This document shows, in pieces, positions 2,830-8,711 of a stretch of DNA of 34,274 nt. The notes under the pieces were generated by a model. That model did no database searches. It was not told where the DNA came from and saw only the letters and a program-made list of their open reading frames with translations. The position numbers and the translations under genes are program-made. This DNA is from Fidelibacterota bacterium (GTDB lineage: Bacteria; Fidelibacterota; Marinisomatia; Marinisomatales; UBA2128), in NCBI GenBank assembly GCA_046861645.1, contig JBHHUM010000020.1, positions 1-34,274 of the forward strand. Reading direction: 5' to 3'. Each line of letters begins with the position of its first letter. The stretch's first letter is position 1.

Positions 2830-4008
2830 ATGAAGACGTTAATAAAAATCCTAAAGGAGATTCGCTCTCTATTCATTATTATCCTGATAGCTCTTTCCCT
2901 TCGCGCCACTCTGGTTGAGGCATATATTGTTCCCACTGGATCTATGGAAACTACTATTCGAACAGGTGATTTTCTTATTGGTAATAAGTTTGTTTATGGA
3001 ATGCGTACTCCAGATTGGGTTGGTATTCCCTATACTGACATTGGGTATGATATTCCTTGGATACGTTTTCCATCCTTCAAGTCTCCTCAGCGAGGTGATG
3101 TGGTAATTTTTAAATATCCCCGGGATGTATTTCAGAAATATGTAAAACGCTTGATTGCCTTACCGGGTGACACGTTTGAAATGAAAAATGACAAAGTTTT
3201 TATCAACGGTGAACCGGAGGGAAAACGAGAATTACTCTATCATAAGTTGAACCGAAATGACCACCGGAATTACAGCTATTATAAAATTACATTGAATAAT
3301 GGAGAAGAGTATATAATTCGCCAAAAAGAAGGTGCTATCGGCGGCATACACTCTTATGATCCAGTAACTATTCCATATAAAGGTCAGGTTTTGCAGATAG
3401 ATGAGAATACTAACTGGGATTTATTGATTCCTATCCTGCTTATGGATGGTCATGAAGTCACTTACGATAATGCTGGTTTGCTACAACTCTTCAATAGCCT
3501 AAAAGTGAATTCCCTGGGGACAAAAGATTACCATTTTACTATGGATGAGCCTGTGGATATAGCTCGACGTTATGAATCATCTTTAGGTCTTAAGTTTCGG
3601 AGACTCTTTTCCAGTAGGGCCTCGAATAAGGAAAAAGTTCAGGAAACCAATAGTCACTTCCGGTTGTACCGGGGAGTGATGCGCAATCATTTCGGAGCTG
3701 AACGAATGCAGGTAGGTTTAAGTAATGAAGGCGATTTACTCAATTCTTGGCTCTTAAGCGAGTTTATTAACATTGATCCCCAATTCATTAAAATTGATGG
3801 GAAACCTGTAACAAAGATGAACCATTATGTCGTTGAGCAGAATTATTTTTGGATGATGGGTGATAACCGCGACGATAGTGCAGATTCAAGATATTGGGGA
3901 TTTGTACCCGAGTGTCATGTATTAGGTGAAGCGGTATTCGTCTATATGTCTTGGGATTTTAATAAGGGTACACCTCGATTGAATCGCATTGGTAAAGTAA
4001 TTAATTGA
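2830..4008 (+). CDS. lepB: Signal peptidase I
   Basis: N-terminal TM, VPTGSME (catalytic Ser), RGDVVIF, YVKR (catalytic Lys) and MGDNRDDSADSRYWGFVP. Confidence 0.95.
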   Translation: MKTLIKILKEIRSLFIIILIALSLRATLVEAYIVPTGSMETTIRTGDFLIGNKFVYGMRTPDWVGIPYTDIGYDIPWIRFPSFKSPQRGDVVIFKYPRDVFQKYVKRLIALPGDTFEMKNDKVFINGEPEGKRELLYHKLNRNDHRNYSYYKITLNNGEEYIIRQKEGAIGGIHSYDPVTIPYKGQVLQIDENTNWDLLIPILLMDGHEVTYDNAGLLQLFNSLKVNSLGTKDYHFTMDEPVDIARRYESSLGLKFRRLFSSRASNKEKVQETNSHFRLYRGVMRNHFGAERMQVGLSNEGDLLNSWLLSEFINIDPQFIKIDGKPVTKMNHYVVEQNYFWMMGDNRDDSADSRYWGFVPECHVLGEAVFVYMSWDFNKGTPRLNRIGKVIN

Positions 4009-6570: not shown

Positions 6571-6894
6571 ATGGCAGTAGATTTCAGTAAACCAGAGGAA
6601 AGAAAACAGTACTTAACTGAAAGGCTAAATGATCTGCTTCTCAGTATCAATGTGAATTATGGTTCGAAACTGATGGAGGAATTAGCCAATCGTTTACAGA
6701 AAACTGTAGATGAATTCAAAGAAGAACTGCAGGATCTCATAGGAACCTTGAAAATTTCCAACGAAAAAAAAGAAGAGCTTCTTACAAAAATTATAACTGG
6801 AGAAGCTGTTATCTCTCAACCCTCTGGCCCAGAAAAGGTAGAGGAAGTGTCTGAAATGAGTGAATGGGAGAAACGTCTCGAAGGATTGAAATAA
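6571..6894 (+). CDS. Hypothetical helical/coiled-coil protein
   Basis: Strong SD GGAGGT. 107 aa, E/K/L-rich. Confidence 0.75.
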   Translation: MAVDFSKPEERKQYLTERLNDLLLSINVNYGSKLMEELANRLQKTVDEFKEELQDLIGTLKISNEKKEELLTKIITGEAVISQPSGPEKVEEVSEMSEWEKRLEGLK

Positions 6895-6907
6895 TAGAGG
6901 ACATCTA

Positions 6908-7420
6908 ATGGAAACCAGAGATAAAGTACTTATTTTAATCGTAGTGGCATGGATTGCAGCCGCTGTTTGGTTCAAAATCACTACCGACCAAGTGGCGGAT
7001 GAAATGAGTAATATCAGGGAAATGTTATCTGATCATGTTGATAAAGTAAATAAAGAATTCCGTGATAATTTATATGATTTGGAATTAAACTTTATCGGTC
7101 GTGAGAAGCATTTGAAAGCGGCTCAAGACAGCATAGCTAACAACAAAAGTTTTACAAAAAAAGTCAGAAGCAGTCTGAAACGAAAAATTGAAAATGTTTC
7201 TGGAGACTTGGAATCTTTTGAAAGGAAAACAGAATCCGATTTTGAAGATATGGGAGGAAAGATTGAAAAAAATAAAAGTGATCTAAGCTCTTTCAAGCGT
7301 ACCACACGCAGGAATCTAAATGACCACGGACGAAACATTACTACTCTTCAAAAAGATATAGAAACCATTCAAGAAAAAATTGGAAAACTAAAGGAATCAG
7401 CTTTTAAAAAGGAGGAGTAA
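6908..7420 (+). CDS. Hypothetical single-pass membrane-anchored coiled-coil protein
   Basis: SD GAGGA, N-terminal TM (VLILIVVAWIAAAVWF) and a long heptad-like charged region. Confidence 0.75.
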   Translation: METRDKVLILIVVAWIAAAVWFKITTDQVADEMSNIREMLSDHVDKVNKEFRDNLYDLELNFIGREKHLKAAQDSIANNKSFTKKVRSSLKRKIENVSGDLESFERKTESDFEDMGGKIEKNKSDLSSFKRTTRRNLNDHGRNITTLQKDIETIQEKIGKLKESAFKKEE

Positions 7421-7482: not shown

Positions 7483-7860
7483 ATGGGTAATAATAATTAT
7501 ATAAATAAAAATATTAAATCCGTTACTGGACAGCAGCTTATTGATCAGGGAATTAATACTGTGGCTAAAATATCACTCTGGATAAGCCAGGAGAGTATTA
7601 TTAAGGAACTTTTTGATTATTCTGAGAAATTGAATTACTTATGGGATTGGAGTGAAACACAGTATACATTTACCAGTAAGGGAGAGATGAAGACAGAGAT
7701 ATCATTTATTTACTATCTGAAAGCTAAGGAGGTTAAAGAATTCAAATCACAATTCCCAATTCATATTGTACATTTCATGAGGTTTGACGCTTTTATACCT
7801 GAAATATTTGATTATTACCAAAAAAAAGTTGGAGTTATTAAACATCGTCAGACAATATGA
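7483..7860 (+). CDS. Hypothetical protein with weak CutA-like similarity
   Basis: 125-aa ORF with an ATGA overlap into the next gene. YTFTSKGEMKTEISFIYYLK loosely aligns to the CutA beta-hairpin. Confidence 0.5.
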   Translation: MGNNNYINKNIKSVTGQQLIDQGINTVAKISLWISQESIIKELFDYSEKLNYLWDWSETQYTFTSKGEMKTEISFIYYLKAKEVKEFKSQFPIHIVHFMRFDAFIPEIFDYYQKKVGVIKHRQTI

Positions 7861-8252
7861 ATTCCATAATTATAGATAACTTCATTTCTGGAGTCCAACT
7901 TTTCAACCAAGGAGAAATTCTAAAGGGCCATGACAAATGGGAAAAACTGTGGAAAGTAGGAGATAAAAAATTACGAAAATGGATAAAGGGGTGGATTCAA
8001 TTTTCAGGTTGCATATTAAATGTACTGGCGGGTAAACCTGGAGGAGCCATTTATTTAGCAAAAAAGACTGACGAGAATCTAAAGCAAGATGAGATTTCTC
8101 CATGTTTTATTGACGTCGAGTCAGCGATATCTGATATCAATATCTTGCAGAGATTACTAGAGGATAATGTAAGTTCGAAAGAGAAGATAAAAGCAGCCCG
8201 ACAAATCAGGATAAAATTTAAACAGGAGAAAAATTTCAAAATTCCTAAATGA
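7857..8252 (+). CDS. DUF309 domain protein
   Basis: GVQLFNQGEILKGHDKWEKLW...KGWIQ matches the DUF309 pattern G..LFN.G.+..+H+.+E.LW...+GLIQ. Confidence 0.75.
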   Translation: MNSIIIDNFISGVQLFNQGEILKGHDKWEKLWKVGDKKLRKWIKGWIQFSGCILNVLAGKPGGAIYLAKKTDENLKQDEISPCFIDVESAISDINILQRLLEDNVSSKEKIKAARQIRIKFKQEKNFKIPK

Positions 8253-8333
8253 AAAGAGGGGTAGACTTCTTAATGACCTCGGAGCACTAGGAAGATCTAC
8301 CCCTACCTCGCGGGAGAGGCTTTTACGCCTCGT
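8247..8333 (-). ncRNA. Candidate orphan small RNA of about 85-95 nt
   Basis: GC-rich structured island in AT-rich DNA, downstream of two promoters. It has a 5' hairpin GAGGC/GCCUC, a long 3' hairpin AGGGGUAGA...UCUACCCCU and a CUUUUCAUUU tail. No same-strand gene lies downstream. Confidence 0.55.
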
Positions 8334-8337
8334 AACA

Positions 8338-8377
8338 AAAATACAGCAATTATATCTCCGTGTCAAGCTTTTTGCAA
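8338..8377 (-). promoter_or_regulatory. Two overlapping sigma70 promoters
   Basis: TTGCAA(8377-8372)-N17-TATAAT(8354-8349) and TTGACA(8366-8361)-N17-TATTTT(8343-8338). Confidence 0.7.
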
Positions 8378-8628
8378 AAATTCTTCTTAAGTAGAACTTT
8401 AGCTTATTTCAAACCTTAAATAAAGATTTTTTCCGATTTTTTATTTTCTTCAAAGTGAGAGTATTTTTTGAAATAACTTATATAATCTATTTCTTTAAAT
8501 ATTTAATCTATCATCATTATTACACAGATATATATTCTATTATAGAAAGTCTTTAACATGATAAAATCCAAAAATCTTAAAGCATAATTATTCGTTAGAT
8601 CTAAGATAATTATATTAGCGATAATGTG

Positions 8629-8711
8629 TACCGGGAGAGGGACTCGAACCCTCACAGCCAAAGGCCATTGGTTTTTGAGACCAACGCGTCTACCAGTTCC
8701 GCCATCCCGGC
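8629..8711 (-). tRNA. tRNA-Leu(CAA)
   Basis: Reverse complement GCCGGGATGGCGGAACTGGTAGACGCG TTGGT CTCAAAA ACCAA TGGCCTTTGGCTGT GAGGG TTCGAGT CCCTC TCCCGGTA. Long variable arm; CCA is not encoded. Confidence 0.97.

Follow-up and report, generated by a model that had tools for sequence, protein, structure and literature searches.

A small RNA gene with lineage-matched complementarity to the nrdJ and purA leaders in one order of uncultured Marinimicrobia

Introduction

The Marinimicrobia are abundant, uncultured marine bacteria, for which no described regulatory RNA was found in those parts of the literature that our search covered. The window analyzed here, a stretch of 34,274 nucleotides from a Fidelibacterota bacterium (contig JBHHUM010000020.1), contains a short intergenic region between a DUF309 gene and a gene for tRNA-Leu, and the question is what this region encodes. 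An earlier note, made from the sequence alone, proposed an independently transcribed small RNA with two tandem promoters and three CGAGG repeats that possibly served as a protein sponge with repeated Shine-Dalgarno (SD)-like motifs. With a probability of roughly 0.7, we read it as the gene of a trans-encoded, base-pairing sRNA of one order of the Marinimicrobia that controls nucleotide synthesis after transcription. Such an RNA would have named targets at two control points of nucleotide metabolism, and it would add a post-transcriptional layer to the control of ribonucleotide reductase in genomes where Hfq was not found. The seed and the target also appear to change together across the order, with a seed swap in which the target was kept and a site that was lost with the RNA, and this co-change makes the evolution of an sRNA-target pair directly testable.

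A Structured RNA Gene with Its Own Promoter

All sequence features listed in the earlier note are present at the locus: the promoter-like sites, the hairpins, the U tail, and the CGAGG motifs at positions 8332-8328, 8310-8306, and 8281-8277. The RNA gene on the minus strand (8252..8332) is real. Its product, which extends over about 80 nt (about 8332-8252, both ends being predicted), is encoded by a single copy in the genome. It starts with a 5' hairpin (hairpin 1, minus strand, 8316..8331) of 4-7 bp with a variable loop, for which pair types were compared over 53 distinct sequences. This is followed by a linker of the type here called A (minus strand, 8304..8315), which is unpaired in the fold and contains the predicted seed UCCCGCGAG at 8315-8307, by a long irregular 3' hairpin (minus strand, 8257..8304) with a near-invariant basal stem and an apical YGAG loop, and by a short tail (minus strand, 8252..8256), the sequence of which is U-rich here and in the homologs.

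The 80-nt stretch from 8332 to 8253 folds at −36.2 kcal/mol with a z-score of −5.0, and none of 200 shuffled sequences folded as well; the opposite strand of the RNA folds with a z-score of −3.2. In the alignment of the homologs, which includes 88 copies of the RNA, the long hairpin shows two-sided changes at 13 of its 20 pairs over 73 distinct sequences. This covariation, one of the checks suggested at the outset, exceeds that of all 500 shuffles and all slid controls, with an alignment that had itself been fitted to the covariance model. In hairpin 1, whose 5' arm was picked by best pairing, the exchanges are A-U/U-A and C-G/U-A/U-G. The type-A RNA has no AUG and no conserved coding frame, and in the RNA of the second linker type (type B, see below) an AUG opens a frame of four codons, the stop of which is lost in family f6. 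Three further candidates, namely a small open reading frame within the RNA, a 3' end resembling a tRNA, and a pseudoknot formed by the apical loop with hairpin 1, were not conserved in the alignment and were dropped for that reason.

A sigma70-type promoter (minus strand, 8338..8366) precedes the RNA and consists of a −35 hexamer TTGACA (8366-8361), a 17-nt spacer, and a −10 hexamer TATTTT (8343-8338). The pattern TTG-N16-18-TAYYTT is present in all 87 homologs with full upstream sequence, as compared with 4% in shuffles, and in all 106 metagenomic copies; in the homologs it ends 6-10 nt ahead of the first stem base. Only this member of the proposed tandem pair stood up to comparison. The other site, TTGCAA-17-TATAAT (minus strand, 8349..8377), located 11 bp from TTGACA-17-TATTTT, has its TATAAT in just two of the 13 type-A loci, both from this genus; it is genus-specific and probably incidental. 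Promoter-like matches in this AT-rich region do not exceed chance expectation (4 observed, 6.2 expected), so only conservation gives them meaning. Nor are the three CGAGG repeats a feature of the family, since all three copies occur in only 5 of the 88 homologs and a single copy in 68 of them. We take the TATAAT of the upstream site, like the threefold CGAGG, to be a local accident. The promoters of type-B RNAs contain a conserved TAAAC in the spacer directly before the −10 hexamer, which is absent in type A and which may be a regulator site or an extended promoter element.

The stop codon (8250-8252) of the convergent DUF309 gene (plus strand, 7857..8252) adjoins the tail of the RNA. The gene downstream of the RNA is on the opposite strand at all 16 loci examined; its identity varies among the relatives, and it is DUF309 in this genome. 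Upstream, on the same strand as the RNA and outside of it, is the gene for tRNA-Leu(CAA) (minus strand, 8628..8711), a syntenic neighbor found in 9 of the 16 homologous loci. With its own conserved promoter (87/87) and a convergent downstream gene (16 loci), the RNA forms an independent transcription unit, and independent transcription, as first suggested, is supported in a family conserved in 94 of 140 genomes. In metatranscriptomes, the segment is present in four runs from three studies. The contigs span the RNA (8242/8252-8319/8325) and tRNA-Leu, and one of them, from a relative, reaches across the promoter; since they stem from relatives with different flanks and give neither strand nor ends, they provide a weak hint only of transcription. 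The missing read cover beyond the RNA and the tRNA carries no weight, because the presence of the organism in these runs was not established.

That the element is only a terminator, of the convergent operon or of tRNA-Leu, or else a divergent housekeeping RNA such as SRP RNA, 6S RNA, or a piece of tmRNA, would be in line with its position between tRNA-Leu and the convergent operon, and no SRP, 6S, or tmRNA was detectable in this assembly, which is 94% complete. However, a conserved promoter of its own precedes the RNA, relatives vary in their convergent gene, and lineages that lost the RNA carry an ordinary, bidirectional-looking terminator at this site; the RNA is not merely the DUF309 terminator. 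The carriers, moreover, have canonical SRP, 6S, and tmRNA genes at other loci. There was no match to RF00169 or RF01854, and canonical SRP RNA is found elsewhere in 32 of 41 genomes, including carriers; there was no match to RF00013 (a 6S RNA has about 180 nt and a central bubble), and five carriers have a separate 6S-like match; and the RNA has neither the tRNA-like domain nor the tag frame of a tmRNA, while full tmRNA is found elsewhere in 116 of 140 genomes, with either linker type. The earlier note had likewise not recognized the RNA as one of these three classes, and we consider the explanation as terminator or housekeeping RNA hardly credible and already largely refuted. Although SRP 4.5S, 6S, and tmRNA are likewise single-copy, conserved, independently transcribed, and structured, the RNA studied here matches none of their models and is dispensable in several families. 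An apparent lack of tmRNA in type-A genomes vanished in a wider search. In family f8, tmRNA was found in two of eight genomes, as compared with 116 of 140 overall, which may reflect assembly gaps, a limit of the search, or an unusual form. The RNA was also considered as a Y RNA and rejected as such, no Ro60 (TROVE) gene having been found in this genome. Against Rfam it gave no match at the gathering score and six sub-threshold matches with E-values up to 10.

Distribution in One Order

No second copy of the RNA was found in this genome, which rules out a dispersed repeat, another challenge to novelty that had been foreseen. A BLAST search identified the element in 17 of 41 genomes, one of which (G040) is a spurious match to the flank. 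A covariance model built from 16 copies identified the RNA in 94 of the 140 genomes of the order, which are Marinimicrobia according to their record titles, each with an E-value of at most 4.4e-9. There is one strong copy in each carrier genome, except G131, where two divergent copies in one assembly (L094, L095) could represent a duplication or binning contamination. Outside of the order, the model gave no strong match and two weak ones in 102 sampled genomes, with 32 candidates scored per genome. A pattern scan of GTDB returned at least 120 stretches, of which at least 27 are strong by the covariance model; among the strong matches listed with titles, 17 of 18 are Marinimicrobia or Neomarinimicrobiota and one is unclassified. 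None of the nine pattern matches in viral sequences scored with the covariance model. The RNA, undescribed as far as our search extended and without a match in Rfam, is common to many uncultured marine Marinimicrobia.

At the syntenic locus of non-carriers, an unfiltered search of 20 loci did not find the RNA; the 20 loci that came from other orders were judged by eye only. In f12, f15, and one genome of f11, only a plain terminator separates tRNA-Leu from the syntenic gene, showing that the RNA is truly missing from the locus. The copy in G021 (L090:389-460) is degenerate, with a broken hairpin 1, an altered seed, and a weakened promoter, and looks like a decaying gene.

Two Types of Linker

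The linker between the two hairpins is a conserved single-stranded seed, unpaired in the folds, of which there are two invariant types. Type A, YUCCCGCGAGGUA, with a palindromic CGCG core, is found in families f1, f3, f5, and f8, including this window, and is degenerate in f4. Type B is UUGGUAUGUGG. Only these two types were found among the metagenomic copies, 117 of 118 of which had upstream sequence for typing (104 of type B and 13 of type A).

The phylogeny (INDEPENDENCE) was inferred from one syntenic protein of 170 residues, with 53 rows and with f7 left out, and is a single-gene tree. The type-A genomes form one clade (100/99), so the seed switch represents one event. Families f2, f12, and f15 are nested among the type-B families (96/95), and the non-carriers of f11 form a separate clade. 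The RNA is missing in f2, f12, f15, and most of f11; it was lost at least three times in branches that are nested within the type-B lineages, and the lineages that lost it are without the B site in nrdJ described below.

Complementarity to the nrdJ Leader

The exact complement of the type-B linker was searched for across the order, and 40 non-self sites were inspected. Most of these are antisense to coding regions. Four sites immediately precede purA, another four immediately precede the SD of a gene for a ribonucleotide reductase, and a single site precedes a TonB-dependent-receptor-like gene. The ortholog of the reductase in this genome passes TIGR02504, which identifies it as the adenosylcobalamin-dependent NrdJ. 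A type-A site in its leader was looked for as a prediction from the type-B targets, and an exact 9-nt complement of the seed is present there (G000:C121), 75-67 nt before the start.

The nrdJ gene was found in 134 genomes, and 70 leaders were read, 30 of them chosen automatically and 40 by hand; two were too short and were dropped. Windows and thresholds for the leaders were set post hoc, when the data had already been seen. The type-A site is present in 13 of 13 type-A genomes, which in view of the single seed switch are not 13 independent tests, in none of 32 type-B genomes, and in none of 17 non-carriers. The type-B site is present in 20 of the 32 type-B genomes (19/31 without the discovery genome), in none of the 13 type-A genomes, and in none of the 17 non-carriers. 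Six further genomes have an undefined RNA status; one of them contains the type-A site and four the type-B site. In a shuffle test at p ≤ 0.05, seed A matched the leaders of 13/13 type-A genomes, 4/32 type-B genomes, and 0/17 non-carriers, and seed B matched those of 22/32, 2/13, and 5/17 of the type-B, type-A, and non-carrier genomes, respectively. The 12 type-B genomes in which the site is missing by threshold include all of f10 and five of the eight in f7, and f6 has a bulged form. Most of the variants in the target sites are G-U-compatible. What the comparison shows is this lineage-matched complementarity, along with the promoter, the structure, and the conservation of the seed. Since the seed matches the front end of the nrdJ mRNA lineage by lineage, the RNA probably controls the supply of nucleotides.

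The position of the site differs between the types. The type-B sites cover an ACA-containing element beside the nrdJ SD. No other part of the type-A leader is as well conserved as the type-A site, which starts 6-8 nt past the predicted start of the transcript (within the first 6-16 nt of the transcript) and constitutes the 5' arm of a terminal hairpin. Co-folding of the RNA of this genome with its nrdJ leader gave a 9-bp seed duplex with the hairpins of the sRNA intact, at about −12 kcal/mol net. In a ranking by duplex energy that is restricted to this genome, the nrdJ leader comes only 43rd of 2072. The type-A site persists in f4, where the RNA looks decayed (G021), and the local hairpin of the leader alone could keep the type-A motif conserved.

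In most families, the nrdJ leaders (L275-L344) also contain a direct repeat, GCCAAC ... TTGCCA[AG]C, that flanks a variable hairpin just after the −10 box, and a CAATATATT-like motif over the promoter, which we take to resemble an NrdR box. No Rfam cis-element was found in the six nrdJ and purA loci scanned, and the repeat and hairpin possibly represent an undescribed cis-element.

Complementarity to the purA Leader and Other Candidate Targets

In 17 of 23 type-B genomes (13/19 without the discovery genomes), the leader of purA pairs with the 5' half of the type-B RNA from the same genome, and it lacks this pairing in the other six; three short leaders were dropped. With a reference type-B RNA, pairing was found in 1 of 13 type-A genomes and in 1 of 6 non-carriers. 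For seed A, pairing to the leader of purA was found in only 1 of 13 type-A genomes, indicating that purA is not a target of type A, and the purA leader of this genome is without a complement of the type-A seed. The type-B duplex spans 15-25 nt just upstream of the start and involves both the linker and hairpin 1. In six genomes of f9, a U>C change in the loop of the RNA is matched by an A>G change in purA (6/6), and in G015 a separate U>C change in the RNA is matched by a G in purA, both as read by eye. In f16, where hairpin 1 has diverged, the purA site is present in 0/2 genomes and the nrdJ site in 3/4. Complementary sites are thus conserved in the leaders of two unlinked mRNAs, nrdJ and purA. 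Given the topology of the tree, the comparisons contain a single seed switch, three to four losses, and two to three compensatory changes, and should not be counted as dozens of independent tests.

The shared motif might instead work as DNA: a transcription factor would bind it as an operator, which is present in the leaders of nrdJ and purA and also, inverted, inside the RNA gene. The palindromic CGCG core of type A, located just downstream of the predicted starts in both genes, would suit an operator, as would the fact that the differences between A and B follow the phylogeny. An operator would not, however, account for a motif that is always antisense relative to transcription, for complementarity in purA that extends into hairpin 1 and tracks the changes in its loop, for target variants that are mostly compatible with G-U pairs, or for the absence of the site where the RNA has been lost. 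We therefore regard an operator as highly improbable and retain base pairing between the RNA and the two leaders as the explanation.

No conserved targets beyond nrdJ and purA were found among the matches inspected. Ranking by duplex energy in a single genome was uninformative for other targets, further 11-nt matches to type A are mostly in coding regions and do not recur, and of the type-B matches close to an SD-like motif, 50 of which were inspected, nearly all are coincidences in coding regions. G000:C54, considered as a second type-A target, is not conserved in three of three orthologs. Candidates seen in single genomes are a complement of the type-B seed upstream of the TonB-dependent-receptor-like gene (L187, G082) and another upstream of an unannotated secreted protein (L532, G072). 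The murD-like coding region of G024:C74 (L087:1501-1553) contains a near-perfect complement, of about 20 nt, to the type-A linker and basal stem; it was seen in that one genome and is absent from the ortholog in this genome.

Proposed Mechanism

Pairing in the cell, and its effect, we infer from the complementarity described above. In the proposed mechanism, the sRNA would be made from its own sigma70-type promoter and would consist of the 5' hairpin, the exposed seed linker, the long 3' hairpin, and the U tail, with the seed pairing to the leader of the nrdJ mRNA. In type B, the G/U-rich seed would cover the C/A-rich element that immediately precedes the SD of nrdJ, and the linker together with hairpin 1 would pair just upstream of the purA start. 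By analogy with GcvB, such pairing would most likely repress translation: GcvB represses yifK by pairing to an ACA enhancer immediately upstream of the SD (PMC3879156), which makes translational repression the likely mode for type B.

In this genome and the other members of the type-A clade, the seed would have been replaced and the site moved to the 5' end of the nrdJ mRNA, where pairing would open the 5'-terminal hairpin. Blocking the type-A site gave no consistent change in the predicted accessibility of the ribosome-binding site (RBS). An allosteric RBS switch is thus unsupported, and an effect on mRNA stability appears more likely; pairing of type A would most likely alter the stability of the nrdJ mRNA, and we lean toward destabilization. 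The net effect of both types may be that the supply of dNTPs and AMP is throttled when growth stops.

Pairing could also be real with the roles reversed or the sign positive, such that the RNA stabilizes or activates nrdJ, at least in type A, or that the leader is a decoy for the sRNA. The type-A site is located at the extreme 5' end, far from the RBS, and a duplex there could shield the mRNA from 5'-dependent decay. On the other hand, the type-B sites directly overlap the translation initiation region, where sRNAs that repress usually bind, and a change of sign on the same target is less parsimonious. We give activation or a decoy only a slim chance and lean toward negative control by base pairing.

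The 3' Hairpin and Possible Protein Partners

The basal stem, the UUC/GAA helix, and the motif of the apical loop are conserved in sequence far beyond the needs of a terminator. The 3' hairpin is a terminator-like end of the RNA and a candidate scaffold for protein binding; this invariant element probably ends transcription and may bind a protein. A stronger proposal is that the RNA mainly binds or titrates a protein, as a sponge or as a ribonucleoprotein formed via the long hairpin, with the matches to the leaders being secondary or coincidental. The conservation of the hairpin would agree with such a role, as would the finding that Hfq was not identified in this genome (in the 94% complete assembly) or in five relatives. 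However, the CGAGG repeats are not conserved, and neither CsrA, nor an RRM protein (a possible chaperone), nor Ro60 was found in this genome, with CsrA present in one of five relatives. A protein sponge with repeated SD-like motifs, envisaged originally as a possibility, is thus not supported, with CsrA not found here or in four of the five relatives. Furthermore, a role in protein binding alone does not predict complementarity that is matched by lineage or compensatory changes, and we consider it unlikely as the main function. The base-pairing explanation itself leaves room for a protein that binds the 3' hairpin.

A bolder version of the base-pairing explanation would be a modular, guide-like RNA, in which the near-invariant 3' hairpin is a handle for a protein that replaces Hfq, and in which the seed is exchangeable. 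One lineage would then have swapped its whole seed and re-acquired nrdJ as its target, with the site in another position and another mode of action. We hold this to be possible, if rather doubtful. If true, the order would preserve a natural history of how a seed and its target were rewired, and it would point to a new RNA chaperone or effector.

Comparison with Known Small RNAs

Like GcvB of enteric bacteria acting on its targets (PMC3879156), type B is predicted to pair a G/U-rich single-stranded seed with an ACA-containing element of nrdJ immediately upstream of the SD, and it likewise has several predicted metabolic targets. In contrast to GcvB, the RNA studied here is much shorter, has no match in sequence or Rfam, and has targets in nucleotide rather than amino acid metabolism; no Hfq was found in the six genomes tested here, and the type-A seed is G/C-rich and aimed at the 5' end of the mRNA. 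CsrB and RsmZ are similarly small, independently transcribed, and equipped with SD-like purine motifs, but they need several GGA motifs in loops as well as CsrA, whereas the repeats here lack conservation and have GAGG as their motif, and CsrA was found neither in this genome nor in four of five relatives. The Hfq-independent sRNAs of Bacteroidota and the cyanobacterial Yfr1 are small RNAs with two hairpins and a conserved single-stranded pairing linker, from lineages without a classical Hfq. The RNA described here differs from these in its seed and targets, and it has no match in Rfam; no RRM protein was found in this genome.

The literature accessible to our search yielded no description of small RNAs in Marinimicrobia, Marinisomatota, or SAR406, or of sRNAs that act on nrdJ or purA. 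The main texts of 2026 preprints on non-coding discovery, of PMC5737381, and of PMC13414033 do not mention these taxa or targets. On comparative sequence grounds, the RNA would represent a new trans-acting sRNA family within a known kind, and the comparative evidence that identifies its targets is unusually clear.

Two further observations concern other parts of this genome. The contig G000:C133 encodes a terminase-like and other open reading frames, which we take to be phage-like based on their motifs. Within the window, positions 6571-7420 contain two unannotated genes, of 107 and 170 amino acids, in a conserved gene order. The 170-amino-acid protein, which has no real match in Pfam, occurs in 221 of 276 genomes from the phylum, and the two genes are located downstream of the gene for signal peptidase I (2830-4008).
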